Shown: positions 4,938-56,359, numbered from the stretch's first letter. The stretch is DNA of 64,000 nucleotides from Blastocatellia bacterium (GCA_963765495.1 CAVXWP010000001.1:288001-352000); one strand, 5' to 3'. Notes: a model not told the origin generated them from the sequence alone. Made by a program: numbers and translations.

Positions 4938-5052
4938 CAGTGATCGGTGATCGGTGATCGGTGGTCCGTAGTCAGTGATCGGTTCGTTGTAACCTTATCT
5001 TCGATTTGAAAATAGCGGCAATAGCCGGAAAAAATACTGACCACTGACCACT
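4938..5052. repeat. 7-mer-periodic inverted repeat (GTGATCG / ACTGACC arms)
   Basis: Tandem GTGATCG-like units 4938-4983 and complementary ACTGACC units 5036-5052; fills the BMC-P to nadE gap. Confidence 0.75.
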
Positions 5053-5320
5053 ATTTTTCAACTTCTACGGTGTCAACGATGCCGACAACGGCCGCGTCAA
5101 TCGGGCATTCCTTGCACTCGAAAGCCATGCGCGCCGAGCTTCCCTGCACGATCAGCACCGTTTCCTGATAGCCCGCGCCCACGGTATCAACCGCGACTAT
5201 ATGGCCCTTCTCGTCCTGACCGTCAACCCCGATCATGCGCGCAATGAGCAATTTACGCCCGTGAAGACGGTCGTCCTTTCGCGTAGCCACTACGGTTCCA
5301 ACTATTCGGGCTAATATCAT
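5051..5320 (-). CDS. Microcompartment vertex protein (BMC-P, EutN/CcmL family)
   Basis: MILARIVGTVVATRK, VAVDTVGAG, GSSAR, PIDAAVVGIVD. The ORF-track extension to 5386 is translated repeat. Confidence 0.95.
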   Translation of the reverse strand: MILARIVGTVVATRKDDRLHGRKLLIARMIGVDGQDEKGHIVAVDTVGAGYQETVLIVQGSSARMAFECKECPIDAAVVGIVDTVEVEK

Positions 5321-5324
5321 AATC

Positions 5325-5426
5325 GTCAGGGGCCAGGGGTCGGGGGTCGGGGGCCGGGGTTTACGGAAGAACGGCGCGCATTGCAACCGATTTACCGACC
5401 CCCGGCCCCTGACCCCCGAATCCCGG
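5325..5426. repeat. 7-mer-periodic inverted repeat (GGGGCCA/GGGGTCG arms)
   Basis: G-rich heptamers 5325-5360 and complementary C-rich heptamers 5393-5426; fills the BMC-H to BMC-P gap. Confidence 0.85.
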
Positions 5427-5428
5427 CG

Positions 5429-5716
5429 CTATTTCCCGCGTGATTCGTAGGTGACGGGCAGATTTTCATCCACGGAAGAGTGCGGACGCGGGATGACGTG
5501 GACACTCACAAGCTCGCCCACTCGCCGGGCCGCCGCCGCCCCTGCATCCGTAGCCGCCTTTACGGCCGCCACATCTCCGCGCACGATGGCCGTGACAAGG
5601 CCCGCTCCGATCTTCTCGTAGCCGATCAGGGTGACGTTGGCGGCCTTGACCATCGCATCGCTTGCTTCGATCATCGCAACCAGCCCTTTGGTCTCGATCA
5701 TTCCAAGTGCTTCCAT
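5429..5716 (-). CDS. Microcompartment hexameric shell protein (BMC-H, EutM/PduA type)
   Basis: [39 protein letters not shown]. Confidence 0.97.
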
Positions 5717-5729
5717 ATATTCTCCATTC

Positions 5730-6563
5730 TCATTGATTCATTTTGCTTGCGACCATGCGCGCAGCTTCCGTTATGAGCGCGGTCAATTCTCTTCGAGTGA
5801 GCGTTACGGTCTCGTCGCCGTTGCCTGCGGAGTGAGAATGAGTGGCGCTGCCTACGGCGCAATTCGACGCGTGCCCCTGAAGGTATCCGCACGCCTGACA
5901 GTTGCGAGCCTCAGCCCCCATGTACCCGGCTCGCTCTCTCACATCCAGCAGTTTGTCGATGGCGTCGGCAGGCAATTCATTTGGTCGCCCGACGATTCTG
6001 GCAATCAGGGTTATCTTGGCGAAATGTTCGAGGGTCTCCATCCGCGCGTGCGCCATATCGAGATCGGGTCCGTAGGCCACCGCTCCGTGATTGGCCAGCA
6101 ACAGCGCATCGTGATGCGGTATGTAAGGCGAGATCGAATCGGTTATCTCGTTTGTCGAAGGGGTGCCGTAAGCCGTGAGCGGTATGCAGCCAAGCGTGAG
6201 AATCACTTCCGAAAGCAATGGCTTGTCGAGCGCGACATTGGCAACGGCGAACCCGGTCCCGAAAGGCGGATGAGCGTGGACTACCGCGTGAACATCGGGC
6301 CGCAACCGGTATATGCTCTGATGCATCGCGAATTCCGAAGAAGGGTTTCTTTCCTGGTTCCGCAGTTTGCGACCCTCGATATCGACAAGCACAAGCATCT
6401 CTTCGGTCATCCGCCCTTTGCACACCATCGTCGGCGTAGTGACTATATTGCCGTCGCCGAGTCTTGCGCTGATATTGCCGTCGGAAGCGGCGACAAAACC
6501 GCTCTCATAAATGCGGCGGCCTATCTCGACTATATGCTCTCTTATTTCGCGCTCGGTCTGCAT
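5730..6563 (-). CDS. Class II aldolase/adducin family protein with C-terminal extension
   Basis: [28 protein letters not shown] Zn-binding motifs; start set at MQTERE. Confidence 0.92.
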
Positions 6564-6678
6564 TGGAACCACTTTCGCTCGCTTCGAACTTCCGCAATTG
6601 GCAAGTGTCACGTGCAATGCGCCCGGCTGTCAAGCGACAGATAGCTGGGATGAACCTTTTGTGATCGCGTGGTGCGCG

Positions 6679-8611: not shown

Positions 8612-8681
8612 TCTATCAATTGGATTAATTAAGAGCGTAACGGAGTGCGCAATCGAATGTCAACGAGCCAAGAGATGGGAA

Positions 8682-8768
8682 TGATGCGTGATGCGTGATG
8701 CGTAAGATAGGTATTTACCCTGTGACAAAAAGATGGCTCCTACCTCACGCATCACGCATCACTCTTCA
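8682..8768. repeat. 7-mer-periodic inverted repeat (TGATGCG / CGCATCA)
   Basis: TGATGCG x3 and TCACGCA x2+. Confidence 0.8.
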
Positions 8769-9413: not shown

Positions 9414-10691
9414 TCATCCTCGTCTGCGCAATCGCTCGATGGCCTGGCGGAAACTGTCGCGCGTGCGATCCATCTGCTCGGCCAATCGGTTGATTTCATC
9501 CTCGGCAAGCGATGGCGGAATCCAATTACCGGCCAGCCCGTTTTGATCCTTTACGGGAGTACTGAGTTCACCGACACTCATTCGAGTTGCGGCTTCGGTC
9601 AGAGCCTCAAGCCTGATGCCCAGAAAGCGCCCGAATAGAAATCCTACAGCGCCTGCCAGTAAAAATGCCAGCACGCCGATGACGATTAGCAGAATTCCGA
9701 CCGTGACCGGGGCTTTAATCTCGCTTGCGGGTATGGCGCAGCCGATGGCTGCAACCTCGGTTCCGTCGAGCGATTTCACGCTTTCCCACGACACGGCGTA
9801 ATCGCGTCCGCCCGATTGAATTATCTCTTCGGTTCTGGCAGGATCGCGCCTCGCGCCTTCAAGCGCCCCTCGACCGCCGGAGTCGCGTTCCCCTTTTGCG
9901 GGAACGCTTGATGCGATGATCGTATCGCCGAGCGATATGAGCGCGCCCGATTCCGGTGCCTGACCGCCGTAAACGATCTGTCGCGCTTCGCCCACTATGG
10001 AGGATTGCAGAGGACCTCCGCCCGCGCGCGTCGTCGAAAAATTATTCAACATCTGGCCGATCAATACCACGCCGACGAAACGCCCCGCGCTGAAGATAGG
10101 CGCGGCAGCTTCGATCATCAGGGAATCCTCAACAAGCGATGAATCAATGCGAGCGACCTCGGCCATCTGCGCTAACCCCAAACGGGCCAGTTGCTCACGC
10201 GGCTCCACAACGGAAGAAGCAAGCGGGCGAATGCGCGATCCCGTTCCCTCAGAGATAACGCTCTCTGCAACCGGGTTCTTGTAGTCGTTTCCGAGGATGG
10301 ACTCCCCGGCCGAAGGGCGGTCGTTATGGCGGGCGATCACGCGCCCGCTTTGATCGGCAACTATCAGAAAATCGAGGCTGAATTCGTTTTGCGCTCCGGG
10401 CAGCATGTCCTGCAATCGCGCCCACGCGGACTGATATTCACTCGGTTCATTTTCGCGGCTGACAAGCACGCGGTTTGCGACTTCATCGGCGAGCCGCTGC
10501 GCGGCCGAGCGCATCTCGGCGAGCCGCTTTTCGTAAAGACCTTCGGCAAGCCGCGCATTATTTTGAAGGCGTTCGCGCGCGCGCGCGCGCGAATCGCGGG
10601 AGGTTTGATAAAGCACCAGAACCGAGGCTACGATCAGAGGAAGAATCGCCGCAACGGCACAAAGCGCTCCAAGCTTCTGGCTCAATCGCAT
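9414..10691 (-). CDS. Membrane sensor: TM-Cache-like domain-TM-HAMP, no output domain
   Basis: Two TM helices; LDFLIVADQSGRVIAR Cache-like strand; HAMP (LTEAATRMSVGEL...DEINRLAEQMDRTR) runs to the stop. Start MRLSQKL; upstream ORF extension is repeat. Confidence 0.8.
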   Translation of the reverse strand: MRLSQKLGALCAVAAILPLIVASVLVLYQTSRDSRARARERLQNNARLAEGLYEKRLAEMRSAAQRLADEVANRVLVSRENEPSEYQSAWARLQDMLPGAQNEFSLDFLIVADQSGRVIARHNDRPSAGESILGNDYKNPVAESVISEGTGSRIRPLASSVVEPREQLARLGLAQMAEVARIDSSLVEDSLMIEAAAPIFSAGRFVGVVLIGQMLNNFSTTRAGGGPLQSSIVGEARQIVYGGQAPESGALISLGDTIIASSVPAKGERDSGGRGALEGARRDPARTEEIIQSGGRDYAVSWESVKSLDGTEVAAIGCAIPASEIKAPVTVGILLIVIGVLAFLLAGAVGFLFGRFLGIRLEALTEAATRMSVGELSTPVKDQNGLAGNWIPPSLAEDEINRLAEQMDRTRDSFRQAIERLRRRG

Positions 10692-10694
10692 AAT

Positions 10695-10825
<131 letters not shown>

Positions 10826-10832
<7 letters not shown>

Positions 10833-13384: not shown

Positions 13385-13489
13385 TGATTCGTGAAGCGTG
13401 AAGTGTGATGTGTGGCCTTGAGATGGTGCCGAAGGTTTGAGCGCGCTTACAAGCCTGCTTGTGTCACAAATCACGTTTCACGAATCGCT
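13385..13489. repeat. Degenerate 7-mer-periodic inverted repeat
   Basis: TGATTCG TGAAGCG TGAAGTG TGATGTG with TCACAAA TCACGTT TCACGAA. Confidence 0.7.
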
Positions 13490-15667: not shown

Positions 15668-15744
15668 AAGCGGTGAATGCTGAATGATGAACGGGGGGGA
15701 TTAAATCACCTCATTCATCATTATCATGTTGAAAGCGGGTTTTT

Positions 15745-16587
15745 ATGCCTGAAAAGGTGAGCTATCTCAAAGAGGCGGCCAAAGAGCCGCTCAACATCTG
15801 GGCTATGGTAGGCTTTGTCGCTTCCTCGGTCTTTGCGGCCACGACGGATTTCTCGATGTTTGCCTGGGTTCCGCTTGCGGCAGGCGCGGCTGCCGAATCG
15901 CTCTATCTGGCGAGCATCCCGGCTACGAGCGCATACCGCAGACTTGTAGATCGCCGGGTGCGCCGCCGTGAATTTGCAGAGCGAGGCCGCAAGCGCGAAG
16001 AACTGATAAAGGCGTTCGACCCTCGCGAGCGCGAGGCGGTCGAATACCTGCGCTGGATGAAGAATCAGATATATCAAAACTATCAAAAATTTGCCCACGT
16101 CGCCGATGTGCCTGATAGCATCTCGCGGCTTGAAAACATCTGGGAATCCTATGTGGACCTGCTCGATGTTTATCGCCGCCGCAAGAATCATCTGCGCTCG
16201 ATAAATCGCCAGACGATTCAAAACCAGACCCAGCAGGCCGAGCGCGCCATGCAGTCGGCCCCCGACCCCGACACTCGCAGACTCTATGAAAAGAATATCG
16301 AAATACTTCAGAAGCGGCTCCAGACCTATAACGACATCGAGCGGTCGATGAAACGCGTAGAGGCTCAACTTCAATCAATCGAGAGTTTCTTCGGGCTCGT
16401 AAACGATCAGGTGGTAACGATGCCTACGCCCGATCACATTCTGTCGCTGGACTTCGAATCCCTGCTCTCTTCTATAGAGATCACCAAGGAGATATTGGAA
16501 GAGACGGCTCCCGTTCTCAGCCAGTTGGACGCCGCCGAGCGCACTTCGCAAGACCACATGCGGCCACCTGTGGCCCAGAGACAATAG
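15745..16587 (+). CDS. Membrane-anchored coiled-coil protein (2 N-terminal hydrophobic segments)
   Basis: Hydrophobic residues ~17-58, then R/E/Q-rich helices; co-oriented between pspA-like and AAA genes. Confidence 0.8.
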   Translation: MPEKVSYLKEAAKEPLNIWAMVGFVASSVFAATTDFSMFAWVPLAAGAAAESLYLASIPATSAYRRLVDRRVRRREFAERGRKREELIKAFDPREREAVEYLRWMKNQIYQNYQKFAHVADVPDSISRLENIWESYVDLLDVYRRRKNHLRSINRQTIQNQTQQAERAMQSAPDPDTRRLYEKNIEILQKRLQTYNDIERSMKRVEAQLQSIESFFGLVNDQVVTMPTPDHILSLDFESLLSSIEITKEILEETAPVLSQLDAAERTSQDHMRPPVAQRQ

Positions 16588-16669
16588 CCGGGGGCCGGGG
16601 GTCAGGGCAGAACGACGAAGTCTTGCTCTCCGTGTCACCGGCCCCCGACCCCTGGTCCCCGGCCCCCGA
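16588..16669. repeat. 7-mer-periodic inverted repeat (GGGGCCG / CCCCGGC)
   Basis: Begins right after TAG and ends about 6 nt before the AAA gene ATG. Confidence 0.8.
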
Positions 16670-16675: not shown

Positions 16676-18382
16676 ATGTCAAGAACAAAACTACTCATTG
16701 ACGATATAGATCAATTGCCCGCGTGGGCTGCGCGAATGGCGCGCAAATACTATGCGGGAGAGGCGAGCCACTTCCTGATATACAACAACATTTATGATCT
16801 GGTGCGCGCCGGGAGCGATTACGTCAGCCTGCTCAATTATCTGCAACGCGAGCTTGTGGGCACAAAACATCTTGTCACCTACAATCGCAGCGAGGGGATA
16901 AAATTCGGATCAACCGAAGCCGAGCGCGCCTTTCTCGCGCAGTTGCGCGTGGCCGACCCGCTTGCGGGCCGCGACGCCGTAAAGCAACTCCCCAGAGACC
17001 CCGCCCGCGCAATACCGCTCATCGAACATTTTTTGCTCTACGGCGATCAGGTCGCGGTCATAATCAATTTCATGGATACGATCATCCCGGCAGGCGACAT
17101 CAGCTATATGTCGGGCGAAGACCGCACAAATCTGGTTGCCTTTCAGCGATGGATAACCAGCTCTCGATTGCTCAAGAAAGACAACATAGTCATACTGATC
17201 GCCGAAAGCGTAGCCGAGGTTCACCCGCGAATACGCCAGAATTCGCGGCTCGCCGCCATAGACATCCCCTACCCGGATGACAGGGAGCGGCTCGAATTCA
17301 TCAAGCACCTGAGCGAGCAATTGCCGCAGTTCAAGACCGATGTCGGCGATGAACAGACGGCGTTGCTCACATCGGGGCTGAATCGCGTGCATTTGAATTC
17401 GCTCATACGCAGCGCCGCCGTGGAAAACGAACCGATGACGGCCGACATGATTCGCCAGAAGAAGAAAGAATTGATCGAAGCCGAATGCGTGGGTCTTGTC
17501 GAATTCGTACACCCCAGATTCGGGCTCGATTCCGTGGGCGGCATGAAGAAGGCTAAGGATTTCCTGCGAGGCATAGCCGAAACCATACGCGAAGGAATAA
17601 CCGAAGAAGCGCCTATGGGCATTTTGATAAGCGGGCCTGTGGGGACGGGCAAGACATTTCTTGCCGAATGCTTTGCCCACGATTGCGGTTTGAACGTGGT
17701 CGCCTTCAAGAACTTCCGCGAGCGATGGGTGGGCTCGAGCGAAGCAAACCTTGAAAAGATATTAAACCTCCTGCAAACGCTTGCGCCCATTGTCGTACTG
17801 GTTGACGAGGCGGACGCGACTCTCGGCTCGCGCGAAACGGGCGGAGACTCCGGCGTAGATGCGCGAATATTTTCCAAACTAGCGGCGTCGATGGGCGATA
17901 CGAGAAACCGGGGCCGCATACTCTGGATACTGATGACCAGCCGCCCCGACCTGCTTCCCATAGACCTGAAGCGCCAGGGCCGGGCCGAAGAGCACATCTC
18001 GCTCTTCTATCCCGACACGGAAGAAGACCGCCTCGCCATAATCGAAGCGATGCTTCGCAAGCATAAGATCAATGTGGAGGTCGAAGACTGGTCCCCGATC
18101 ACAAAGAGCCAGTTGACGCTTTCGGGAGCCGACATCGAATCCATGTTGATCCGCGCACGCAGGGTCAGCCGCAATGCCGGGCGAAAGATCGTCACACACC
18201 CGGATGTCGAGCAGGTGGCAAACGAGTTCAGCCCGGCTCGCGACGAACTGGCCATCGAATACCAGGTGCTGGTTGCTGCTCGCGAGGCCACATCGCGCGA
18301 GATGGTCCCGGAAAAGTATCGTCACCTCTCTCCCGTAGAACTGAGCCAGCGCATCGAAGAATTGCGTTCGTTCATACGATAA
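16676..18382 (+). CDS. Classical-clade AAA+ ATPase with degenerate N-terminal module
   Basis: Walker A GPVGTGKT, pore loop RWVG, Walker B VLVDEAD, SRH SRPDLLPIDLKRQGR; N-terminal half has no Walker A but keeps an AAA-like IPYPD...R lid. Confidence 0.9.
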   Translation: MSRTKLLIDDIDQLPAWAARMARKYYAGEASHFLIYNNIYDLVRAGSDYVSLLNYLQRELVGTKHLVTYNRSEGIKFGSTEAERAFLAQLRVADPLAGRDAVKQLPRDPARAIPLIEHFLLYGDQVAVIINFMDTIIPAGDISYMSGEDRTNLVAFQRWITSSRLLKKDNIVILIAESVAEVHPRIRQNSRLAAIDIPYPDDRERLEFIKHLSEQLPQFKTDVGDEQTALLTSGLNRVHLNSLIRSAAVENEPMTADMIRQKKKELIEAECVGLVEFVHPRFGLDSVGGMKKAKDFLRGIAETIREGITEEAPMGILISGPVGTGKTFLAECFAHDCGLNVVAFKNFRERWVGSSEANLEKILNLLQTLAPIVVLVDEADATLGSRETGGDSGVDARIFSKLAASMGDTRNRGRILWILMTSRPDLLPIDLKRQGRAEEHISLFYPDTEEDRLAIIEAMLRKHKINVEVEDWSPITKSQLTLSGADIESMLIRARRVSRNAGRKIVTHPDVEQVANEFSPARDELAIEYQVLVAAREATSREMVPEKYRHLSPVELSQRIEELRSFIR

Positions 18383-18419
18383 TCTGAGATATCAAATCTC
18401 AAATCCCTTCGCCAGACCT

Positions 18420-22508: not shown

Positions 22509-22590
22509 GTGATTCGTGATACGTGATTCGTGACTTTCAGGCACTGACCTTTTAAAAGGCTTGTCGCTGACTTCACGCATCACGTATCAC
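22509..22590. repeat. 7-mer-periodic inverted repeat (GTGATTC / CACGCAT)
   Basis: GTGATTC GTGATAC GTGATTC GTGAC with TCACGCA TCACGTA TCAC, right after the S8 stop. Confidence 0.8.
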
Positions 22591-31671: not shown

Positions 31672-31773
31672 CTGATGCGTGATGCGTTCAATGATGCGTG
31701 AAGAGTGATTCGTGACTTTCAGCAAGGGCGCAGGTTTGAGACAACTCGCAAGCTTGCTCGAATCACGCATCAG
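31672..31773. repeat. 7-mer-periodic inverted repeat (TGATGCG family)
   Basis: CTGATGCGTGATGCG...GTGATTCGTGAC with AATCACGCATCAG overlapping the upstream stop. Confidence 0.7.
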
Positions 31774-33094: not shown

Positions 33095-33223
33095 GTTTGT
33101 CCGTCGGCCGTTGTCGGTTGCAGATTATAACGATATTCATGTAAAGCCAAAATCCGTTTTCTGACAACGGACAAATTAGAGCCACTGGCGAGCGTTATCA
33201 AGCCGGATTATACTATTTACCGT

Positions 33224-42209: not shown

Positions 42210-42252
42210 GTATAATCTGAGATTTGAAATCTGAAATCTCAAATCAATAGAC

Positions 42253-43641: not shown

Positions 43642-43711
43642 TGCGTGATTTACCTGTCTTGCGGGTTATCTTTAAGAGGCGACTTCCTGAAAATCACGCA
43701 TCACGCATCAC
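43636..43711. repeat. 7-mer-periodic inverted repeat between convergent genes
   Basis: GCGTGATGCGTGATT / AATCACGCATCACGCATCAC. Confidence 0.8.
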
Positions 43712-45936: not shown

Positions 45937-45971
45937 CGAGATTTGAGACTTGAGAACCGAGATTTGAAATC

Positions 45972-48179
45972 TCAGCGCCGTTTTCTGAGTCGTTCCAACC
46001 AGGACAAAGGAGAATGGCCGAGGCTGTTGGCAGGCGGCTTGATGCCAAGCAGATCGGCCACAAACGGAGCCACGTCTATCGAGCGAATAGTCTTTATCGT
46101 TAAGCCGTGTGGCAAAAGCGGCCCCCGAGTGATGAAACTGGCGAGCATCTCATCTCGCGTAGGCCTGAAGCCATGCGCTCCGTAAGGCGCGCGGCTTTGA
46201 GTGACGACATCCCCCGTCAGCGAATCAGAGACGGCGTATCCGGGCGACAGCTCGAAATACACGTCTCCATCTGCCGGGCCGCCGATCCCAAATTCGTCCG
46301 CATACTCTTTAGCCTTGAAGAATCGCGTGAATACCGGTCGCCCGGTTTCAGGGTCTCGCACCTTTCGAAGCGCCCGCTCGACCTCATCGGCTACCGCATC
46401 GCGCTCGCCTGTGGGCACTATGCCTCCGAGCCAGTCTTTTGTGTTTAGCAGCACTGAATACTTCAGGTAAAATGCCTTGGTCCGCGATTGATCAATTCTG
46501 CCCTCGTCATTTACGAAGAGTAGACCGGCATCGCGCAGCGCAACGTTTACTCTCACCTCTTTTGCTATCGGAGACATGCCGTGATCGCTTACAAAGATGA
46601 GGTATCCGCCTGCTCCCGCGAGTTTGTCGAGCAGCGCCACGCGGGTGTCAATTGCCGCGTAGCCCCATCGGCGATAAATATCTATTCGGCGTTTTACCTT
46701 TTGCGCGACTCGTGTTACATCCGGGCGCGCAAGGCCGTACCACGTGTGCTCCATCTCGTCGGGATAGGGGCAATAATCCATCAGCAGGCGAGGGTGATAA
46801 TGGTCATAAAGCCAGTTTGTCAGACGGTTAAACTGGCGTATGACCATCTCCATCCCTTCAAGATAACGCCGCTCCGCCGTTCCATTTCCCCCCGCGTATA
46901 ATTGCTTTCCGAGCAGCCCGTCGCTGTATAGATAAGAAGGCCCGTTGCCGATAAAGCCACCGGCTTCTTTCAAAATGGTCTTTACGACGGCGCGGGAGTT
47001 TTCAGTGCCGTCATACATCGCAAGCTCATAGATGCCCGGCTGGTAAAGAAAGAAATCGCCGCCGTCCCGGGCAAGTTCAAAGAGCCGAAAATAGGCGATT
47101 GTCGGCGTTGCTTTTTCGCCTGCCGCAAGCGGCAACCCCTCGCTGAAATGGCGGGCGAGCGCGCGCGCGCGCGGAGGCGCGCTTTCAAGTGGGGCGGGCG
47201 CTACTCGCACTCGCGGCCCCTTGCGGTCGATAGCCACAAACATCGCCGTGTAGCCCTGTGCCCGGTTCTTTTCGGCTACGAGCGCGCCGTGGAAGGTCAC
47301 ATCTTTTACGGTCCAACTGAAGGCGCGTACGGGCAGCGCAGATTTCGGAAGCGCGGGTGTCCATTCGCCCGAATCTTCCGGCTTCGAATTGGCGGCGCGA
47401 ATGACCGTGCCCGGCGCGAGCATCCGTGGCCCGTACCCGCTCACAAGAACAGGAGCGGGGTCTCTTCCCGGCCCCGTCACCACGGGCGCAAACGGGTAAT
47501 TTTGCGTTGTTTGATGCGCGACTACGCTCACGCCCTGCCGGGCTGCCGTCACCCACAAAGGTTCGGCGCGAAGCAGGTCGCCGTCGTAACCCGAGCGTTG
47601 TTCGAATGCCGTATGCTCGTTTCTGGGCAGGAGCCGGTTCTCAGCCGAAGCGATCCCGTTCACATTGCTGTAAGCTCCTGTCCAGAGGGATGCGTGGCCC
47701 ACGGGTGTGACGCTTGGGAATGCCTGAATCATGCCGCGAGCCGTAACTCCACGGGCAGCTATTCGCCGAAGCGAGCGCAACTGGCTTGTGACCGGGTCTT
47801 TTGACCAGATGTGATAGGCAAATCCATCCAGGCTCGCGAGTATGACTCTTGTCTGCGGGGCACTTGCCTGCGGGGCACTTGTCTGTGGGGCGCTTGACTG
47901 CGACTTCTGGGCATCTGATTCCGGGCGAGCCCCGGCGGCTACGGGAAGAATCCCTCCGCAGACAAACAACGCGATCAGAAGAAGGGATAAGACACTCCCG
48001 GCAAATCTTGAGAGAGAATTATACTCGTTTCCGTTTGACTGTAGGGGCAGCCCTTGTGGCTGCCCGGATCGCGCGTTAGCGCGATGGCAGCCATCGCCCT
48101 TCGGGCGATCCGGGCAAGGACAAGCCTTGCCCCTACATTTGCTCCATATGCATCTGGAAACCGGTCTATTCTTTTGCAT
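45972..48179 (-). CDS. Exported alkaline phosphatase/nucleotide pyrophosphatase family protein (start uncertain)
   Basis: SLDG, FPSVT, DEMEH, SDHG, GAHG. Confidence 0.85.
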   Translation of the reverse strand: MQKNRPVSRCIWSKCRGKACPCPDRPKGDGCHRANARSGQPQGLPLQSNGNEYNSLSRFAGSVLSLLLIALFVCGGILPVAAGARPESDAQKSQSSAPQTSAPQASAPQTRVILASLDGFAYHIWSKDPVTSQLRSLRRIAARGVTARGMIQAFPSVTPVGHASLWTGAYSNVNGIASAENRLLPRNEHTAFEQRSGYDGDLLRAEPLWVTAARQGVSVVAHQTTQNYPFAPVVTGPGRDPAPVLVSGYGPRMLAPGTVIRAANSKPEDSGEWTPALPKSALPVRAFSWTVKDVTFHGALVAEKNRAQGYTAMFVAIDRKGPRVRVAPAPLESAPPRARALARHFSEGLPLAAGEKATPTIAYFRLFELARDGGDFFLYQPGIYELAMYDGTENSRAVVKTILKEAGGFIGNGPSYLYSDGLLGKQLYAGGNGTAERRYLEGMEMVIRQFNRLTNWLYDHYHPRLLMDYCPYPDEMEHTWYGLARPDVTRVAQKVKRRIDIYRRWGYAAIDTRVALLDKLAGAGGYLIFVSDHGMSPIAKEVRVNVALRDAGLLFVNDEGRIDQSRTKAFYLKYSVLLNTKDWLGGIVPTGERDAVADEVERALRKVRDPETGRPVFTRFFKAKEYADEFGIGGPADGDVYFELSPGYAVSDSLTGDVVTQSRAPYGAHGFRPTRDEMLASFITRGPLLPHGLTIKTIRSIDVAPFVADLLGIKPPANSLGHSPLSWLERLRKRR
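48040..48137. repeat. GTAG-type REP doublet (REPIN-like)
   Basis: TGTAGGGGCA...TGCCCCTACA ends with internal palindromes; AGCAAATGTAGGGGCA also at 58845-58860. Confidence 0.8.
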
Positions 48180-49014: not shown

Positions 49015-49062
49015 GGTTCTCCTCTGAATAATCTCCGATTTGAGATTTGGGATTTCAAATCC

Positions 49063-50937
49063 TTATTGTCGTTTGTCGGGCGTGAGCTTCAGAGTCACTT
49101 CGCGACCGTCGCGACGAACGACGATATCGACTTCCTGTCCGGGGGTCAGTTCGCCAAGCGCGAAGGTATAGTCGTACACGTTTTTGATAGGAAGCCCGGC
49201 CAGTTTCGTGACCACATCGCCTGCGCGCAATCCGGCGCGTTCGGCCGGCGACCCTGCGCGCACTCCGTCAAGTTTTAGTCCTTCCTCTTGATCCGAATAG
49301 TTGGGAACCGTACCGAGATAGACTCGGAAGCCGCGCCCCGTTGGTCTTGATTCCGTTTTGACGCGGGTAAAGGCTATGCGCTCGGGCTCGGATGCAATCG
49401 CCTCGGTAAGGTCTCGCACAAACTCGACTATCTGTTTTTCGCCTTCGAAATTTATCTTATCGGCGGTGTCTGACGGCTTATGATAATCGTCGTGCGTGCC
49501 GGTGAAGAAGAAGAGGACCGGAACGTCTTTCACATAAAAAGATTGATGATCGCTCGGCCCGTAGCCGTCCTGAGAAAACTTCATCTGAAACCGTGCGCTC
49601 TCTTTCGGGCCGTTGAGTTTTTCGAGCAGACTGTTCCAGGCGGGCGAAGTGCCTACGCCGCCGATCATCAGAGAATCTTCGCGGAGGCGACCGACCATGT
49701 CCATATTGATCATCGCAACCGTAGAGGCGAGGGGCACCAGCGGATTTTTGGTATAAGCGGCCGAGCCGAGAAGCCCAAGTTCTTCGCCCGAAAAGGCTAA
49801 AAAGAGGATGCTCCGTCGGGGCCGGTTGCTATCGGCAGATAAGATGTGCGCCAACTCCATCAGCGCAGCCGTCCCCGATGCGTTATCATCGGCGCCGTGG
49901 TGTATTTCTCCTTCCGGGTTTTGCGCGAGCGATTCTGAGCCGCCCAGACCCAGATGATCGTAATGCGCGCCCAGGATTATGTATTCATCCTTGAGTTTGG
50001 GATCGCTGCCGGGCAAAAGGCCGACCACGTTTGCGCTGTTGCCGTCGATCTTTTTCACATCGGTTTTGAACTCGACCGTCACATTCTTGACCGCAAGCGG
50101 CGCGGGCGATTTGACCGCCTGCTTTTCAACCTCGTCAAGCGACGAGCCCGAGGCGCTAAGCAGAGACTGGGCTACCTGCCGAGTTACCACGACAGCGGGA
50201 ACGCCAGCGTCCAGAAAATTCAAATCGTGGCGAAGCCGGGATAATACATCGTCGTGAAAATCCTTTTCGGAGCTGACAAATATCACTCCGCTAGCGCCTT
50301 TCTCTCGGGCCTTGACGGTCTTTTTCTGTATCTCAAGCCCGGGCGCGGTATAGTCGGCAAATCGCCCGTGAGGGTTGTCGCCGTCGGGGCTGCCGCGCAT
50401 TATCATCACGATCTTTCCGGCCGGGTCAACGCCTGCGTAGTTGTCATATTGAAGCTCGGGCGCGCTGATGCCGTAGCCCGCAAAGACCAGCTGACCCGAA
50501 GCGGGCGTGGATGAAGAAAAAGCCAGAGGCATGTAATCTTCCGTTACCTTGAGCGAGCGCGGACCGGCAGCCGTCTTCACCTGAAAGCTGTTCTCGTCTC
50601 CAAGCTCGACGCGCGAAACGAATGTAAAAGGCTGACGATAATTTGTTCCCGGGAGAGGTTGTAACCCGGCGGCGCGAAATTGGCGGGATATATAATCTGC
50701 CGCGCGGTCAGCGCCCGAGGTTCCGGCGCGGCGGCCCTGCAATTTGTCGCTTGCCAGATATACTATGTCGCGCCTGAGCCTGAAAAGCGAAACGCGATTA
50801 TCCCGGGCGGCTTTCGGCGCGTGCTGGCCGTAGACCGCAAAGCTATTTATATTCGTTATTGGCGTAACCGGCGCGATCAGCAAAGCAATCGCCGCGAGCA
50901 ATAGCCCGGCTTTTTTAATCATCGTAAGAACTCCCAT
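49063..50937 (-). CDS. M28 aminopeptidase with PA and PDZ domains
   Basis: GAHYDH, GADDNASG, GEELG, NMDMVG, YH; C-terminal PDZ. Confidence 0.93.
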   Translation of the reverse strand: MGVLTMIKKAGLLLAAIALLIAPVTPITNINSFAVYGQHAPKAARDNRVSLFRLRRDIVYLASDKLQGRRAGTSGADRAADYISRQFRAAGLQPLPGTNYRQPFTFVSRVELGDENSFQVKTAAGPRSLKVTEDYMPLAFSSSTPASGQLVFAGYGISAPELQYDNYAGVDPAGKIVMIMRGSPDGDNPHGRFADYTAPGLEIQKKTVKAREKGASGVIFVSSEKDFHDDVLSRLRHDLNFLDAGVPAVVVTRQVAQSLLSASGSSLDEVEKQAVKSPAPLAVKNVTVEFKTDVKKIDGNSANVVGLLPGSDPKLKDEYIILGAHYDHLGLGGSESLAQNPEGEIHHGADDNASGTAALMELAHILSADSNRPRRSILFLAFSGEELGLLGSAAYTKNPLVPLASTVAMINMDMVGRLREDSLMIGGVGTSPAWNSLLEKLNGPKESARFQMKFSQDGYGPSDHQSFYVKDVPVLFFFTGTHDDYHKPSDTADKINFEGEKQIVEFVRDLTEAIASEPERIAFTRVKTESRPTGRGFRVYLGTVPNYSDQEEGLKLDGVRAGSPAERAGLRAGDVVTKLAGLPIKNVYDYTFALGELTPGQEVDIVVRRDGREVTLKLTPDKRQ

Positions 50938-51007
50938 TTTGAAATCAGGATTTGTTATTGAACTGAGAAAGCATCATATCGGTGAGCGTGAATCAGTGTC
51001 AATGGGT

Positions 51008-51140
51008 GGGGGCCGGGGGCCAGGGGCCGGGGGCCGGTTTATTGGCGATCTTGGGTGTTGATTATACGATAGCTACTCATATTCGATCAGTTATTTCCAA
51101 ACAGAATTACCGGCCCCCGACCCCCGACCCCCGGCCCCCG
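51008..51140. repeat. 7-mer-periodic inverted repeat (GGGGCCG)
   Basis: Four G-rich and four C-rich heptamers; abuts the mlaD stop. Confidence 0.9.
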
Positions 51141-53090: not shown

Positions 53091-53209
53091 AGGGGCCAGG
53101 GGGCAGGGGCCGGGGATAAGCGATAGTCCTTTTAATATTTTGAACCGGCCCTGTAAGCAACAATGATGCATAGAGCCAACCGGCCCCCTGCCCCGAACCC
53201 TGGCCCCTG
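53091..53209. repeat. 7-mer-periodic inverted repeat (AGGGGCC)
   Basis: Fills the mlaE to mlaF gap. Confidence 0.85.
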
Positions 53210-53211
53210 TC

Positions 53212-53970
53212 TCACTGGCTGAAGGCCAGAATTATCTTTCCCAGGAAAAAATCCGCCGCAAGAATGAGAATATCCGATAACACGACGGCCTGTGTCGTGG
53301 ACCGTCCCACGCCGACCGTTCCCCCGGTTGTGCGCAATCCCGCGCGGCAGCTTACTATGGCTATGATAAAACCAAAGACCAGGGGCTTGACCATCCCGCC
53401 TATGATGTCGCTGTAGGTCAGGGCTTCTTTGGCGGCGCTGATATAGACCGAGCTTGCCACGTTCATCAGCGTGCTTGCCACTACCCAGCCGCCAAAGGCT
53501 CCGACTATGTCGGCTATGAGCGTCAAGGCCGGAGTCATCAACATCAGGGTAAAAAGCCTCGGCCAGACCAGCTTCTTTATAGGGTCGGTCCCAAGCGCTC
53601 GCATGGCGTCTACCTGTTCTGAGACGACCATCGAACCGAGTTCTGCGGCTATGGCGGAACCAACGCGCCCGGCTATCATCAAAGAGGCAAGCACGGGGCC
53701 CATCTCGCGCACGAGCGAAGTCATGACGAGCGTGCCGGTCACTCCGGTCGCGCCGAATGTCTTCAGCGTATCGGCGGTTTGAAGGGCGAGTATGCCTCCG
53801 GTGAAACCACCCGTGAGCACAATAATCATCAATGACCCGACCCCTATCGAGTCCATCTGCATTATGATGTCACGTAAATAGAAGGGCCGGGATAGCGCGC
53901 GCCCGAAGGCGCGGCCTGCCATAAGCGTTGATTCCTGTAGCTCGTATACGGCCTGTATGACTGGATTCAT
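53212..53970 (-). CDS. mlaE: MlaE-type permease
   Basis: REMGPV, AGRVGSAIAAELGSM, EQVDA, GVGRSTT. Confidence 0.92.
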   Translation of the reverse strand: MNPVIQAVYELQESTLMAGRAFGRALSRPFYLRDIIMQMDSIGVGSLMIIVLTGGFTGGILALQTADTLKTFGATGVTGTLVMTSLVREMGPVLASLMIAGRVGSAIAAELGSMVVSEQVDAMRALGTDPIKKLVWPRLFTLMLMTPALTLIADIVGAFGGWVVASTLMNVASSVYISAAKEALTYSDIIGGMVKPLVFGFIIAIVSCRAGLRTTGGTVGVGRSTTQAVVLSDILILAADFFLGKIILAFSQ

Positions 53971-54170
53971 CTATTCAAGCGTCCCCTGCCGATGAGAGAG
54001 CGAAAATTCCCGACTAATGTGGCTTCATATTGTGTCTCAGGCCGACCGCGCTACACTGGCTGAGTGACAATTATGATGAAGGTTTACAAAACGTCCGTCA
54101 AGTGGAACGGATAAACATAATTGCGTGGCCTCCCTACCCGGAACCATTCAGCTTTCCAAAATGCAGGATG

Positions 54171-54282
54171 GGAAAATTGAAATAGGCCACGGATTCGACG
54201 GATCAGACGGATTATCACGGATTTGGTTCTATAAGGTCTAATCCGCGTAAATCCGTCCGATCCGTCGAATCCGTGGCCTATT
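54171..54282. repeat. Near-perfect ~9-mer-periodic palindrome
   Basis: AATAGGCCACGGATTCGACGGATC ... GATCCGTCGAATCCGTGGCCTATT. Confidence 0.9.
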
Positions 54283-54500
54283 CCCACTTGCCTTCCGTTC
54301 AAATTAACCTGCAAAAATTTTGACGCATATTGTCGGCAACTAAAAAACTGAATGACCCGGCCTGGCTGCTGCTTCCACCTTTTATGACCTGAGTTACGGC
54401 TTGCCTGCGGCAGGTGCCGGGTCTAAAATTCACCCTTGAGTTTATACAACTAAACTTATAAGGCGAGCTATTCCGGCACAGACGAGAAACGGAAAAGGCT

Positions 54501-56252
54501 ATGAAGCAAAAGATCACGATCAGACAAGCCCTCGATGAGGTAGTCAGTAAAATGAGCGCCGTCATGTCGCGCGAAGAGATCGTGTCAGCCGTTCTGGAAC
54601 GTTTTCACTCAAAGGCCAAAAAACCCGCCACTTCTATAATGGAACAGGTCAGATGTCACCCTGATCTTGTGGCGCTCGGGGATGGGCATTATGCGCGAGC
54701 CGATTATGTGCTCGAGGGCGCGAAATTTCGGATCAAACCGGGCAATGATGAGATCGCCGCAGGCATTGTGAATCGCTCGTGGTTTCATCCGTTCGATAAG
54801 GTTATGCCCACGCACGCGAGCATATTCGCGCTCAAAGACGGGAGAGATATTCCCATGACGACCAGAGTGGTCGGGGTCGAGGAGCTTACCGATGAGCAAC
54901 TCAAATCCATGCTCGTCAATCTTGCGGAAAGGTTCCTGGGAGGGGTGGATACGGATGCGCTTGCCGCTCTAAACATATTTCAGGACGACGATCCTGATAC
55001 GGACGAACTTGCTCTGGCAGAACTGTTTTCGCTCGAAGCAGACGACGAGGAATTTGCCGACGAGATGGATGGGGAACTTGCAGAGAAGGAACTGCTTGAT
55101 CAAGCCAGGCAACTGATCAAGGCGCAGGGCGGGCAAGAGATCAAAGGACACAATTTCGAGCCTTTTTTCAAAGAGAATAAAGTGAAGGAAGGCGATTCGC
55201 TCATCGTTACCATCAGCCCTAAAACAAACACCTATATCTTCGAATACGAACCTGCGAGCGAGACTCAACGGCTCATAATCAGGCATCACGACCACGAGAT
55301 CAGCGAGTTTATACACCAGGCAATCAAGCGCGATATGCGTGTCGAGGCGCGTGATCTGATTTTTCAAGCCTACGGCAAATTCGTCTGGCTCAAGCAGTAC
55401 CCTTCAAATCACTGGCGCGAAATTGTCGAAAATGACGACCAGCTTCGTTTGATCACTATATTCGGCGATTACATCGAAATCGCCTCCATCGACTTTCACA
55501 TGATGCTCGATAGCCTGGGCATGGATGAGGTAACCCGGAAGAAACAGCACAAACGGTCGAAGATCATCCAGGAGGAGATCGACAGTTTCTGCGACAGGTT
55601 TGAAGAAGCTTCCAGCGCCGCCTGCGCAGATCTGACTACGGTCATTGATGCAGGCGGATTGGCAAATGTCATCCGTCCTGACCGGCGTCTTTGTGCGCCC
55701 GATGTTTTGCAGGAAGAGAGCGAAACAGATACGGGCGGGGACGGTAACGGCCATTTCGGACCCTTGCGAGTGGTAAAGGATTCAGAGGCCGTGCCGATAA
55801 TGGTTTATGACGAATGTGATTATCAGGCCATCAGCGAACACGATGAAAAGTTGATAGAGCAGTTCTTTGCGGGGATGGGGAAAAAGAGAACCGCCACCGC
55901 TCAGGCTGAAAAGAAAGCAGGCGATGTGGCTTTGTTTGCCGATTTCCTGGCCAGCTATCAGGACCGCGCTCTGGAGTATGCAGATTATGACTGTCTCGAA
56001 GAGTTCTTCTTCATGTGGTATCCGCGAAAGGTGCTAAACTCGTCGCCCGCCCACATCAGGCAAATGTTTACGAACCTGCGCGAGTTTTATCAGTTTCTCG
56101 TAAAAGCGAACTATATTCGAAGCGCCAAATTTGCCGAGGCAATTTTCAACTTGCGAGAGCTGGCCGCCGAAAAGGTCAAATTGTATGACCGGCTGCCGTA
56201 CGGAAACGATTACCACCCGCTGTTTGAAAAGCTTTTTGGCCTGGACTGGTAA
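54501..56252 (+). CDS. Hypothetical acidic protein
   Basis: 583-aa ORF with plausible composition; no confident family. Confidence 0.75.
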   Translation: MKQKITIRQALDEVVSKMSAVMSREEIVSAVLERFHSKAKKPATSIMEQVRCHPDLVALGDGHYARADYVLEGAKFRIKPGNDEIAAGIVNRSWFHPFDKVMPTHASIFALKDGRDIPMTTRVVGVEELTDEQLKSMLVNLAERFLGGVDTDALAALNIFQDDDPDTDELALAELFSLEADDEEFADEMDGELAEKELLDQARQLIKAQGGQEIKGHNFEPFFKENKVKEGDSLIVTISPKTNTYIFEYEPASETQRLIIRHHDHEISEFIHQAIKRDMRVEARDLIFQAYGKFVWLKQYPSNHWREIVENDDQLRLITIFGDYIEIASIDFHMMLDSLGMDEVTRKKQHKRSKIIQEEIDSFCDRFEEASSAACADLTTVIDAGGLANVIRPDRRLCAPDVLQEESETDTGGDGNGHFGPLRVVKDSEAVPIMVYDECDYQAISEHDEKLIEQFFAGMGKKRTATAQAEKKAGDVALFADFLASYQDRALEYADYDCLEEFFFMWYPRKVLNSSPAHIRQMFTNLREFYQFLVKANYIRSAKFAEAIFNLRELAAEKVKLYDRLPYGNDYHPLFEKLFGLDW

Positions 56253-56359
56253 TGCGTGAATCGTGATGCGTGACTTACAGACGGGCTGCATGTTTTAGAC
56301 AGTTTGCCGACTTTGTAAATCACGCATCACGATTCACGATTCACGATTCACGATTCACG
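56252..56359. repeat. 7-mer-periodic inverted repeat (CACGATT)
   Basis: TGCGTGA ATCGTGA TGCGTGA with TCACGCA then TCACGAT x4. Confidence 0.9.

Follow-up and report, generated by a model that had tools for sequence, protein, structure and literature searches.

Heptamer-armed hairpins are scattered through the gene junctions of a Blastocatellia bacterium, and we regard them as probable relatives of the 23S rRNA IVS that lie outside rRNA and are mostly gene-less. The elements share one architecture, sit at gene ends, have the IVP gene (PF05635) as their sole recurrent coding cargo, and co-occur with IVP across genomes. We analyzed a 64,000-nt stretch of this genome (the window; GCA_963765495.1, CAVXWP010000001.1:288001-352000), for which a first-pass annotation had proposed about 18 such elements, and folded each listed site against 200 dinucleotide shuffles. 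No shuffle was equally stable at the 13 sites marked 0/200 below (z -3.5 to -7.9), four sites are marginal (4938, 18381, 31672 and 42214), and the site at 33096 falls away as not significant, with 23 of 200 shuffles as stable (z -1.17). The loops of the 18 elements span 8-98 nt.

4938..5052, unstranded: arms (GTGATCG)n at 4938-4983 and (ACTGACC)n at 5036-5052, between the stop of an EutN/CcmL-like gene (5051-5053, minus strand) and the NAD synthase start (4934); the arm units are unlike each other and the hairpin is therefore marginal (z -2.64, 2/200).
5325..5419, unstranded: GGGGNCN-type, arms 5325-5359 and 5395-5419, within the BMC operon, where it separates the BMC-H stop (5429) from the start of the EutN-like gene (z -3.95, 0/200).
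8679..8762, unstranded: GTGATGC-type, arms 8679-8703 and 8743-8762 with a 39-nt spacer; ORF 8334-8684 ends on the TGA at 8682-8684 (z -5.67, 0/200).
10691..10832, unstranded: AGGCAGT-type, arms 10691-10726 and 10799-10832, its core belonging to a conserved 72-nt family; the right arm extends across the stop (10826-10828) of a DZR/FGE-sulfatase-domain gene (z -5.69, 0/200).
13385..13486, unstranded: degenerate GTGATKC-type, flanked by the stop of the polyprenyl synthetase gene (13491) and the start of the downstream zinc-ribbon gene (z -6.57, 0/200).
15670..15722, unstranded: short degenerate hairpin of GAATGAT-like units, 3' of the PspA/IM30 gene stop (15667); z -3.54, 0/200, with an inverted-repeat score (9) no better than shuffles.
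16587..16668, unstranded: GGGGNCN-type, arms 16587-16607 and 16638-16668, beginning on the stop of ORF 15745-16587 (z -3.77, 0/200).
18381..18405, unstranded: weak compact GAGAT/ATCTC hairpin at the AAA ATPase gene stop (18382); 3/200 when folded as 18381-18520, with an inverted-repeat score (7) no better than shuffles.
22509..22590, unstranded: GTGATKC-type, arms 22509-22533 and 22573-22590, immediately 3' of the S8 peptidase stop (22505); z -6.40, 0/200.
31672..31773, unstranded: marginal GTGATGC-type, its right end overlapping the acyltransferase stop (31763); z -2.95, 1/200.
33096..33175, unstranded: listed TGTCCGT site, with only a 9-bp terminal inverted repeat.
42214..42245, unstranded: compact GAGATTT/AAATCTC palindrome with nearly no spacer, 3' of the SnoaL-like gene stop (42209); z -2.77, 4/200.
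43635..43711, unstranded: GTGATGC-type with a 43-nt core, filling the gap between convergent aspartokinase and ribD (stop 43716), the aspartokinase stop (43639-43641) lying within the array (z -6.05, 0/200).
45938..45973, unstranded: short GAGATTT-type hairpin between the stops of a radical-SAM gene (45936) and a convergent phosphodiesterase gene (45972); z -4.34, 0/200.
49037..49126, unstranded: two neighbouring hairpins, one GATTTGA-type (49037-49061) and one TTGTCGT-type and heptamer-armed (49064-49126); z -4.23, 0/200.
51004..51140, unstranded: GGGGNCN-type, arms 51004-51037 and 51110-51140 with a 72-nt spacer, the right arm adjoining the MlaD stop (51141); z -5.51, 0/200.
53091..53208, unstranded: GGGGNCN-type, in the mla operon, flanked by the MlaE stop (53212) and the start (53081) of the ABC ATPase; z -5.17, 0/200.
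56252..56359, unstranded: GTGATKC-type, beginning on the stop of ORF 54501-56252, the left array shorter than the right array, (TCACGAT)n at 56319-56359 (z -7.90, 0/200).

An ungapped inverted-repeat score exceeded all 60 shuffles at 11 of these 18 sites, and TRF returned 49 rows for the window, 24 of them of period 7. A strict period-7 detector paired both arms at only four sites (8679, 10691, 43635 and 51004); it left 11 further runs in the window unpaired, the opposite arm being degenerate. Protein-coding ORFs, and not 23S or 16S rRNA, flank every copy in the window, no Rfam family, rRNA included, was found in the window, and none of the 18 elements contains a PF05635 ORF in the manner of an ORF-bearing IVS.

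Genome-wide, tandem runs number 1029 for period 7 and no more than 225 for any other period from 4 to 15. When the rules are relaxed, a reverse-complement partner lies within 330 nt for 974 of 1461 runs, compared with 31 in the control, which bears out the proposed coupling of heptamer period and inverted pairing. Strict pairs are inverted in 352 cases and direct in 19, and the G/T-rich form is the left arm in 351 of the 352. Array density is about 200 per Mb, with hundreds of copies per genome, and 953 of the 1461 runs lie outside called ORFs, in 12% of the genome. Arms comprise two units in 32 cases, three in 138, four in 229, five in 144, six in 31, and seven or more in 12; this peak at four is unlike a slippage-like decay and corresponds to the 28-bp IVS stem described for Coxiella (PMC4990558). 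With a median arm length of 28-29 nt, the elements have the long-stem terminal inverted repeats of an rRNA IVS. Left and right arm lengths are nearly uncorrelated (r 0.17), and unit variants are weakly mirrored between arms.

The arms indeed lie at or across stop codons, as originally described: over 359 gene-end measures genome-wide, the stop-to-arm distance has a median of 0/+1 (IQR -5 to +6). A stop triplet is present in 296 of 352 units (84%), compared with 27.6% of random heptamers, and the first stop triplet at the array edge is the in-frame stop in 206 of 304 cases. These distances and the position of the stop triplet agree with the suggested preference for gene ends. Among classified pairs, 92 of 289 lie between convergent genes, an enrichment over the 998 of 5836 intergenic regions.

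Two features of the initial description require revision, namely that the elements are defined by period rather than sequence and that their spacers are unique. Seven unit families account for 877 of the 1461 runs in this genome, and a weak consensus, nGTYAGk, extends across phyla (3.96 bits vs at most 3.23 for shuffled units). Of 334 spacers 18 nt or longer, short-word blastn placed 156 in families (with, for example, 30, 28, 14, 13, and 13 members), and many spacers are thus conserved modules; the spacer at 10695 is a member of the 72-nt core family and that at 43636 of the 43-nt one. Small cores have no orientation bias relative to transcription. The few conserved unit families, the weak mirroring of arms and the low correlation of their lengths argue for sequence-specific arrays, not for the proposed recognition by hairpin geometry alone.

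The suggested association of heptamer arms with four-helix-bundle Avd/IVP-like genes proved well founded. All four PF05635 genes of this genome lie between inverted heptamer arms, as do 24 of the 30 best IVP loci of relatives and 15 of 20 further IVP loci in genomes G009 and G013. Across many phyla, 59 of 80 IVP loci lie between period-7 arms, against 1-4 of 80 for periods 5, 6, 8, and 9, and at these loci array density is 3.5 per kb near the IVP gene vs 0.16 per kb far off. Arms do enclose cargo genes elsewhere in the genome, IVP being the only recurrent coding cargo. IVP cassettes measure 440-450 bp with the IVP ORF as their sole content, and the gene shares the orientation of its upstream neighbour in a ratio of 40:5 and of its downstream neighbour in a ratio of 38:5. 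IVP matches Avd weakly (NF033474, E 4.6e-7), and homology between the two is stated in PMC10053308. We found no printed report of a general link between IVP and heptamers.

Arrays follow IVP between genomes as well, in two comparisons that both ignore kinship. Period-7 runs per 100 kb number 0-1 in three IVP-less genomes (1 in G015) and 1-32 in ten IVP-bearing ones; over these 13 genomes IVP correlates with period-7 run density (Spearman 0.67, p 0.012), while rho is 0.05 for other periods. Among 151 genomes of the phylum, with array calls limited to CAGT-type units, 39 have both IVP and arrays, 48 have IVP without such arrays, 5 have arrays without IVP and 59 have neither, an association with an odds ratio of 9.6 (p 5e-7). 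Each of the 20 genomes with 10 or more arrays has IVP. The elements had been proposed as empty or non-autonomous forms of a cassette, and the near-absence of arrays from IVP-less genomes fits the part of that proposal in which gene-less copies are dependent forms.

Elements are gained and lost at orthologous junctions, where the anticipated filled, empty, and absent states were all found. At the mlaE-mlaF junction (the 53091 element), the genes of 8 out of 14 informative relatives from the same family are separated by an empty 2-22 nt, and 4 of the 14 have clear heptamer arms with units unlike those of the window. After lysC (the 43635 element), 2 of 17 same-family relatives have arrays, with differing units, and 15 have no array at all; 3 of these 15 empty sites (L117, L123, and L131) have a native GCGTGA. 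The ispB junction contains arrays in 6 of 15 relatives, two of them nested, and at the 13385 junction a different family of the order lacks the element, with a TAATG overlap in its place.

We weighed several other origins for these elements. Replication slippage favouring 7 nt could have produced simple-sequence repeats whose inverted pairs were kept as useful gene-end stem-loops, with IVP as a passenger; mRNA 3' protection and operon segmentation are the uses proposed. Heptanucleotides are reported to be the commonest class of long SSRs in many bacteria, with slippage of the polymerase already suggested as their origin (work of Mrazek as related in PMC4679880), copy number differs between arms here (r 0.17) and between Coxiella strains (PMC4990558), and no mobility gene lies at the arms. 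Slippage nevertheless seems unlikely: a unimodal four-unit arm length would not be expected, the same few units are shared by hundreds of dispersed loci with diverged cores between them, one orthologous junction has differing units across genera and is 2-22 nt long where empty, and IVP-less genomes of the same family, such as G015 at 1 run per 100 kb, are nearly without arrays. A sense-strand wobble signature is also absent, G.U-compatible changes in the sense transcript being no commoner than expected among arm mismatches (102 vs 117, p 0.34). Since this leaves no signature of selection on a sense-RNA stem, it counts against an IVS-like origin too. Rho-independent terminators or attenuators, assembled from repeats by chance, would account for stable stems at gene 3' ends and for the enrichment of convergent pairs, yet the terminal U-run is largely missing (at least 7 T in the 12 nt past the stem in 6.8% vs 3.3% of random intergenic sequences), many copies lie within operons right before the next start codon, as in BMC and mla, and stems of 25-35 bp with 40-110-nt loops are atypical, which makes this improbable.

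G-quadruplex or i-motif regulatory repeats comparable to GGGAATC of Xanthomonas and GGGGAYT of Nostoc are very improbable. G-rich heptamers form G-quadruplexes in vitro and occur as 70-75 inverted pairs per Xanthomonas genome (PMC4692102), and the AGGGATG and GGGGNCN families here are capable in principle, but units with a GGG tract account for only 89 of the 352 pairs and the largest families (GTGATKC, AGGCAGT, GAGTTTT) cannot form the structure. We give equally little credence to REP/REPIN-like elements moved by a Y1 (RAYT/IS200-like) transposase, or to MITEs of a classical insertion sequence. The elements are high-copy extragenic palindromes and the genome encodes two Y1_Tnp proteins; however, the strong match has no arrays within 1.5 kb and the weaker one has a single run at 1.4 kb, target-site duplications are absent (flank direct match 3.21 nt vs 3.20 for shuffled partners), and among the long-gap pairs examined no transposase lies between the arms, where IVP is the sole recurrent cargo.

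In the preferred reading as dispersed relatives of IVSs, an element is a small insertion in which 3-5 tandem heptamers precede a cargo and return in inverted form after it, with the G/T-rich and usually stop-bearing version pointing inward from either side. The cargo may be nothing, one of a few small conserved modules, a nested element, or the gene for IVP, a pentameric four-helix-bundle protein (PF05635/TIGR02436) homologous to DGR Avd. Copies lie at gene junctions, typically flush with the stop and also inside operons, where they would be harmless: arms would end translation in every frame, and a stem of some 28 bp may be removed or tolerated at the RNA level, by analogy with RNase III acting on IVSs. 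IVP cassettes may represent the autonomous form, with IVP acting in trans on arrays, at about one unit per pentamer subunit, and thereby spreading or maintaining them. Element transcripts may likewise be cut by RNase III, for which the genome has an rnc-like gene. Several observations count against this reading. Mobility genes such as a transposase or RT are missing beside the arms, a resident IVP cassette is lacking for the largest families here (GTGATKC, AGGCAGT, GAGATTT), and arrays whose unit does have one are not consistently purer. The absence of target-site duplications, the weak mirroring of unit variants, the lack of orientation bias in small cores, and the 48 IVP-bearing genomes without CAGT-type arrays weigh in the same direction. 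Cassettes and arrays of the same genome share units in 10 of 19, 12 of 14, and 8 of 31 cases, vs 3-8 of the same totals between genomes; this excess is modest, and such modest sharing also speaks against the reading.

Cyanobacterial STRRs are heptamer repeats, and the intergenic heptanucleotide arrays described here are similarly over-represented relative to other periods. The cyanobacterial SDRs attributed to Elhai et al. 2008 are reportedly 21-27-nt structured repeats in heptamer arrays with nested insertions, a description with which the nesting and small conserved cores here may be compared. DGR targets also lie at gene 3' ends beside a hairpin. The homology of IVP to Avd is a further likeness to DGRs, but the cassettes lack RT, template repeat, and variable repeat; the 8 RVT_1 matches lie elsewhere in the genome, none at an IVP cassette. 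REP/BIME/REPIN elements and RAYTs likewise combine abundant gene-end palindromes with a single-copy protein partner proposed in trans, whereas in our case a four-helix-bundle pentamer with no enzymatic activity would act as partner, periodic arrays make up the stems, and the Y1 genes are not flanked by repeats.

The designation of an undescribed system was too strong, given published accounts of IVSs (PMC4990558) and of inverted heptamer pairs in Xanthomonas (PMC4692102). IVSs carrying an S23p/IVP ORF are described for Leptospira, Coxiella, Brucella, and with a Xanthomonas-type protein in PMC4990558, which covers the 28-bp stem, heptameric repeats, and excision by RNase III and also cites an idea of Ralph & McClelland 1993 on IVSs; in Coxiella, tandem GACAGAT stands beside the ORF in 2-3 copies depending on strain. 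As related there, IVSs share with our elements terminal inverted repeats with a stem of about 28 bp, a PF05635 ORF in the loop, gene-bearing and gene-less forms, and sense orientation within the host transcription unit. Excision by RNase III is established for IVSs (PMC4990558) and would apply here by analogy. The copies here differ in lying outside rRNA, at protein-coding junctions flush with stops, and in numbering hundreds per genome, mostly without an ORF and in about seven unit families. Rehm et al. 2015 (PMC4692102) described the inverted GGGAATC of Xanthomonas and heptamer repeats of Nostoc, which are also intergenic, mostly of four units, present as 70-75 convergent pairs per genome, and not conserved in gene position between related species. 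In the passages on these repeats they are read as G-quadruplex formers, unassociated with mobile elements and not linked to IVP, whereas most units here have no G-tract. The TAACTGA repeats of marine Beggiatoaceae (MacGregor 2015, PMC4679880) also form junction arrays that, read in one orientation, supply stops in every frame; they extend into ORF ends, and mobile elements are suspected of carrying them; the difference is that nearly all are direct and before start codons, with only 1 inverted among 170 sets. Their reverse complement, TCAGTTA, fits the nGTYAGk theme.

More tentatively, IVP/S23p may be the trans-acting, sequence-specific partner of near-universal selfish hairpin cassettes whose arms are arrays of 7-nt units on the nGTYAGk theme. 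If so, one system would stand behind rRNA IVSs, the heptanucleotide excess (STRR, GGGAATC, TAACTGA), and hundreds of stop-flush insertions per genome. The arms shared by IVP genes and hairpins in themselves tie together two long-unexplained features of bacterial genomes.

The window lies in a genome of 7.3 Mb on 17 contigs (54% GC), and its genes include a sigma-54 activator, a BMC shell operon with a class II aldolase, an FGE-sulfatase, a PD40-amidohydrolase and C25, S8 and M28 peptidases. TRF returned 49 tandem repeats from the window, 24 of them with a period of 7 and commonly in nearby pairs with complementary units. The 18 intergenic sites listed in the first-pass annotation as palindromes of heptamers were each folded and compared with 200 dinucleotide-preserving shuffles: at 13 sites no shuffle was equally stable (z -3.5 to -7.9), at four (4938, 31672, 42214, 18381) the result was marginal (1-4 of 200 shuffles), and at site 33096 folding was not significant (23 of 200). 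By an ungapped inverted-repeat score, 11 of the 18 sites surpassed all 60 shuffles. Across the genome, a single score threshold gave 1029 period-7 runs, the runner-up periods being 15 (225 runs), 12 and 14 (143), 9 (132) and 6 (125). A laxer threshold gave 1461 period-7 runs (200 per Mb, 0.5% of the genome), of which 953 lie outside called ORFs, that is, in 12% of the genome. Neighbouring runs form 352 inverted pairs versus 19 direct ones, and a relaxed search (reverse-complement 14-mer, up to 2 mismatches, within 330 nt) found a partner for 974 of the 1461 runs, the reversed, non-complemented control yielding 31. The layout is thus genuine and greatly exceeds what chance would produce.

The elements had been described as defined by period rather than by sequence, usually around a unique spacer, and both parts of that description need revision. 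Units are not free: the genome holds 251 canonical units, and seven families contain 877 of the 1461 runs.

Unit families of the window genome and their numbers of runs
GTGATGC: 263
GTGATTC: 142
AGGGATG: 130
AGGCAGT: 102
GGGGGCC-like: 87
GAGTTTT: 80
GAGATTT: 73

The G/T-rich form of the unit is the left arm in 351 of 352 pairs and, because the element is a palindrome, points inward on either strand. Arm length is regulated and equal to the stem of the 23S rRNA intervening sequence (IVS): its distribution is unimodal with a peak at four units, and the left and right arms of a pair are nearly uncorrelated in length (r 0.17). Spacers are most often 40-49 nt (100 pairs) or 70-79 nt (70 pairs) long, and many of them are conserved modules bound to one unit family, 156 of 334 falling into clusters even by short-word blastn. 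The core measures about 43 nt between GTGATKC arms, 72 nt or 113 nt between AGGCAGT arms, and about 70 nt between AGGGATG arms, where it carries 10-nt terminal inverted repeats (AAAGGACTNT...ANAGTCCTTT). A derivation of the 72-nt core by internal deletion from AGGCAGT-armed IVP cassettes of relatives was rejected, leaders and trailers being unrelated by eye.

The window also holds tandem repeats of other periods. A period-9 inverted tandem pair lies at 54189-54274 (ACGGATTAG x3.8 / AATCCGTCC x2.8); GCGGAT-rich modules related to it occur as cargo of heptamer-armed elements (113-nt core; C8:194436 and C14:59015, on two contigs of the window genome) and also 3' of lysC in relatives that lack IVP genes (loci L140, L143). 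A period-8 inverted pair at 40399-40460 (CACAGAGG x2.9 / TCTTTGTG x3.0), 5' of an ORF at 40442-40942, stands outside the heptamer family. An intergenic 16-mer is repeated 3.4 times at 19726-19779 (GAGAGAGATAGTTTTT), and 15-mer arrays within long ORFs (11995-12056, 47848-47902) encode in-frame peptide repeats.

Position relative to genes was analyzed with a greedy set of 5853 ORFs (88% coverage). The distance from the stop codon of a flanking gene to the arm has a median of 0/+1 and an interquartile range of -5 to +6 (359 measures), so that the proposed targeting of gene ends, with arms starting at or overlapping stop codons, holds throughout the genome. Convergent gene pairs are enriched around the elements (92 of 289 classified pairs versus 998 of 5836 intergenic regions) and divergent pairs depleted (22 of 289 versus 996 of 5836). 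A stop triplet is present on the inward-reading strand in 296 of 352 units, compared with 27.6% of random heptamers, and as 7 is not divisible by 3, every frame meets a stop within three units. In 206 of 304 cases the gene actually ends at the first stop triplet that the array edge offers; about one third would be expected for a random frame. Classical terminators were rejected as an explanation, because T-runs follow few elements (6.8% versus a background of 3.3%) and several elements lie inside operons, directly 5' of the next start (4938 and 5325 in the BMC operon, 53091 in the mla operon). In the BMC shell operon (5051-6617; EutN/CcmL-like, BMC-H, class II aldolase) elements fill two gaps, and if the operon is one unit they must be transcribed through.

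Orthologous junctions in relatives are found filled, empty and without any element, and the heptamer elements are insertions. Between mlaE and mlaF, 15 relatives of the same family were compared, of which 14 are informative, one locus being cut by a contig end. Eight of the 14 retain a native gap of 2-22 nt, four carry heptamer-armed elements with units unlike those of the window (TTTTGGA, ATCCTGA, a related TTTTAGA-like unit and TTCTGTA) and two have short hairpins of a single unit. The window genome itself carries a GGGGNCN element at this junction. At the 3' end of lysC, where the window genome has a GTGATGC element, 15 of 17 same-family relatives are free of arrays, and the remaining two bear arrays built from different units (GTTTCGS, GGTTTMG). 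The 3' end of an ispB-type synthase gene is a stop/start overlap (TAATG) in four sister-family genomes and bears arrays of various units in six of 15 same-family relatives. The same junctions have thus been occupied repeatedly and independently, and elements also nest: 3' of the ispB-type gene, two of the six occupied loci (L173 in genome G007, L179 in G015) have an inner heptamer hairpin within an outer one of a different unit. No target-site duplication was detected at the elements. At three of the 15 empty lysC sites (L117, L123, L131) the native sequence closes with ...GCG TGA, matching in phase the GCGTGAT array that the window genome carries, a correspondence which suggests that elements may insert at micro-homology to the unit.

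To learn what the arms enclose, we listed properly oriented inverted pairs with gaps of 150-3000 nt. The sole recurrent ORF between arms, and the sole coding cargo, is a protein of 115-133 aa found at four loci, here called IVP (PF05635/TIGR02436, S23p).

IVP cassettes of the window genome (contig and coordinates)
C1:724983-725426, IVP cassette
C1:951859-952300, IVP cassette
C1:1070888-1071326, IVP cassette
C7:193586-194034, IVP cassette

A PF05635 search of the whole genome returned exactly these four genes and none beyond, in agreement with the earlier suggestion that similar arms flank four-helix-bundle genes in other bacteria. All four match TIGR02436 ('four helix bundle protein'), one of them also weakly matches the model of Avd, the homologue in diversity-generating retroelements (DGRs), and they are mildly basic (pI 8.5-9.6) and diverged, with 15-21% identity to the first. 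The arm unit differs from cassette to cassette (GGGGCCN, TTTGGAT, GAGTTTT, AGGGATG), and at three of the four a co-oriented upstream gene has its stop at -25 to 0 nt relative to the arm. Among solved structures, the best match is XCC0516 of Xanthomonas campestris (2gsc, E 2.6e-26, five chains), which forms a homopentamer built from four-helix bundles (PMC4990558, PMC10053308). The best-named relatives of the genes are in Pyrinomonadaceae and Acidobacteriaceae MAGs; taken with the gene content of the window, this suggests a soil bacterium of the Acidobacteriota. No reverse transcriptase or Y1 transposase linked to the arms was found in the window genome. RVT_1 ORFs at C2:555493-558553 and at the starts of C8 and C9 are unlinked to heptamer arrays; these ORFs, two of them at contig starts, probably belong to repeated retroelements at which the assembly broke. 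In two other genera an AGGCAGT-armed IVP cassette adjoins a paralogous aspartokinase gene (G004:C24:29398-31247 and G009:C1:166522-168331; L020, L007), which suggests vertical inheritance at a single locus; no cassette lies beside the copy of that gene in the window genome (C9:57083-58480).

The association of IVP with heptamers extends well beyond this genome. Of 41 genomes from the same class, 33 carry PF05635 genes; among the best 30 loci, one per genome, period-7 runs lie on both sides in 15, on one side in nine and on neither in six, and 15 of 20 further IVP loci in two relatives have heptamer arms. A wider survey, queried with an alignment of 19 closer IVPs, covered 80 loci from named genomes of Acidobacteriota, Planctomycetota, several Proteobacteria classes, Chloroflexota, Cyanobacteria, Clostridia, Bacteroidota, Actinomycetota, Verrucomicrobiota and others. 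A period-7 run lies within 200 nt of the ORF at 59 loci (29 two-sided and inverse-complementary, three two-sided without that relation, 27 one-sided), control periods of 5, 6, 8 and 9 occurring on either side at 1-4 of the 80. Run density is 3.5 per kb near the IVP gene and falls to 0.16 per kb over the remainder of the loci. The other 21 loci have none by the strict rule, and several of these show degenerate heptamer inverted repeats by eye. Units at IVP loci differ widely, yet have a weak consensus, nGTYAGk, in common. IVP is co-oriented with its upstream neighbour in 40:5 cases (35 unclear) and with its downstream neighbour in 38:5 (37 unclear), so that it sits in co-directional gene arrays, like the IVS in the rRNA operon.

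Arrays also co-occur with IVP genes at the level of whole genomes. In 13 genomes of the class, sampled at 100-200 kb each, the three that lack IVP, including a near-complete one of the same family as the window genome, have 0, 0 and 1.0 period-7 runs per 100 kb, and the ten that bear it 1.0-32 (Spearman 0.67, p 0.012, n=13, ignoring phylogeny; rho 0.05 for periods 6, 8 and 9). In a phylum-wide sample of 151 genomes at least 90% complete, in which only (CAGTNNN)3CAGT arrays were counted, 44 have arrays and 87 have PF05635: 39 have both, 48 IVP only, five arrays only and 59 neither (odds ratio 9.6, Fisher p 5e-7, for one unit type and ignoring phylogeny). All 20 genomes with at least 10 arrays carry IVP. 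Without three unpublished genomes (G463, G487, G579) the counts are 37/47/5/59 (odds ratio 9.3, p 9e-7). A sister family without IVP (sampled in G026, L223-L232) has 0 period-7 and 8 period-8 runs per 200 kb, and inverted CAGGATT-type repeats at 8-9-nt spacing 3' of lysC (L141); these may represent a different repeat system.

The elements resemble known IVS/IVP elements. The 23S rRNA IVS of Coxiella is selfish, has a terminal stem of 28 bp and contains an S23p ORF, which is preceded by two or three tandem GACAGAT units and a degenerate one in strain-variable copy number. RNase III cleaves inside the stem, and the same work cites an older idea that the product of the ORF may be part of a mobility apparatus (Warrier et al. 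2016, PMC4990558). Xanthomonas genomes have about 185 GGGAATC arrays each, mostly of four units, with 70-75 convergent pairs, which the description of these arrays reads as G-quadruplex formers and does not link to mobile elements (Rehm et al. 2015, PMC4692102). The species that supplied the XCC0516 structure is the one for which such inverted pairs were described; a search of 401 genomes, all from the class to which one named locus belongs, found (GGGAATC)x3 in none. TAACTGA arrays with stops in all frames have been described as well (MacGregor 2015, PMC4679880). Cyanobacteria, too, have heptamer repeats, treated in work on their STRR and SDR elements. The family of the window genome is extra-ribosomal and mostly gene-less. 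It is a real and abundant family, best filed as such a variant of IVS/IVP elements, so that the first-pass proposal of an undescribed system does not wholly stand. A search of freely available full texts found no paper that sets out a general IVP-heptamer rule; both this rule and the genome-level dependence seem to be new, and each can be tested directly.

By analogy with the IVS, RNase III may cut transcripts within the heptamer stem, and the window genome has an rnc gene. A view of the elements as acting through RNA only is disfavoured by three results: arms show no sense-strand G.U/wobble asymmetry (102 vs 117), core orientation is unrelated to the direction of flanking genes, with both orientations occurring, and unit variants are only weakly mirrored between arms (mismatch 6.9% vs 7.7%, p 0.002). 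RNAalifold on 57 AGGGATG-type cores recovered the outer stem only, and position-by-position pairing was confined to the conserved 10-nt termini, with a few compensatory changes; no Rfam families were found in the window. The results fit arms laid down at the DNA level, as arrays of one unit on both sides. More speculatively, templated extension of the 3' ends flanking a break could give this geometry, since on either strand the 3' end of the G-rich array points to the centre of the element. As to the agent, IVP cassettes may be the autonomous form of the family, the IVP pentamer recognizing the array of 7-nt units in trans and promoting its spread or maintenance. The co-occurrence of arrays with IVP genes is in keeping with this; against it, the three largest unit families have no resident IVP, and the concordance of cassette and array units within a genome is modest. 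Arrays with a resident cognate IVP are not consistently purer than others. We advance the autonomous cassette and its pentamer tentatively, as somewhat short of an even prospect.

Two puzzles of some thirty years, namely the cause of the excess of heptanucleotide tandem repeats, which in many bacterial genomes are over-represented beyond any other long repeat, and the role of the IVP/S23p protein of rRNA intervening sequences, are now tied together by simple, checkable statistics: arrays are common only in genomes with IVP genes, and the gene-less copies act like stop-codon insertions. Annotators gain a rule with which to spot hundreds of small insertions per genome that distort ORF ends and intergenic regions. 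IVP gains a concrete, testable candidate ligand in its own arm sequence, and the family may offer an evolutionary bridge from IVP to the Avd protein of diversity-generating retroelements.
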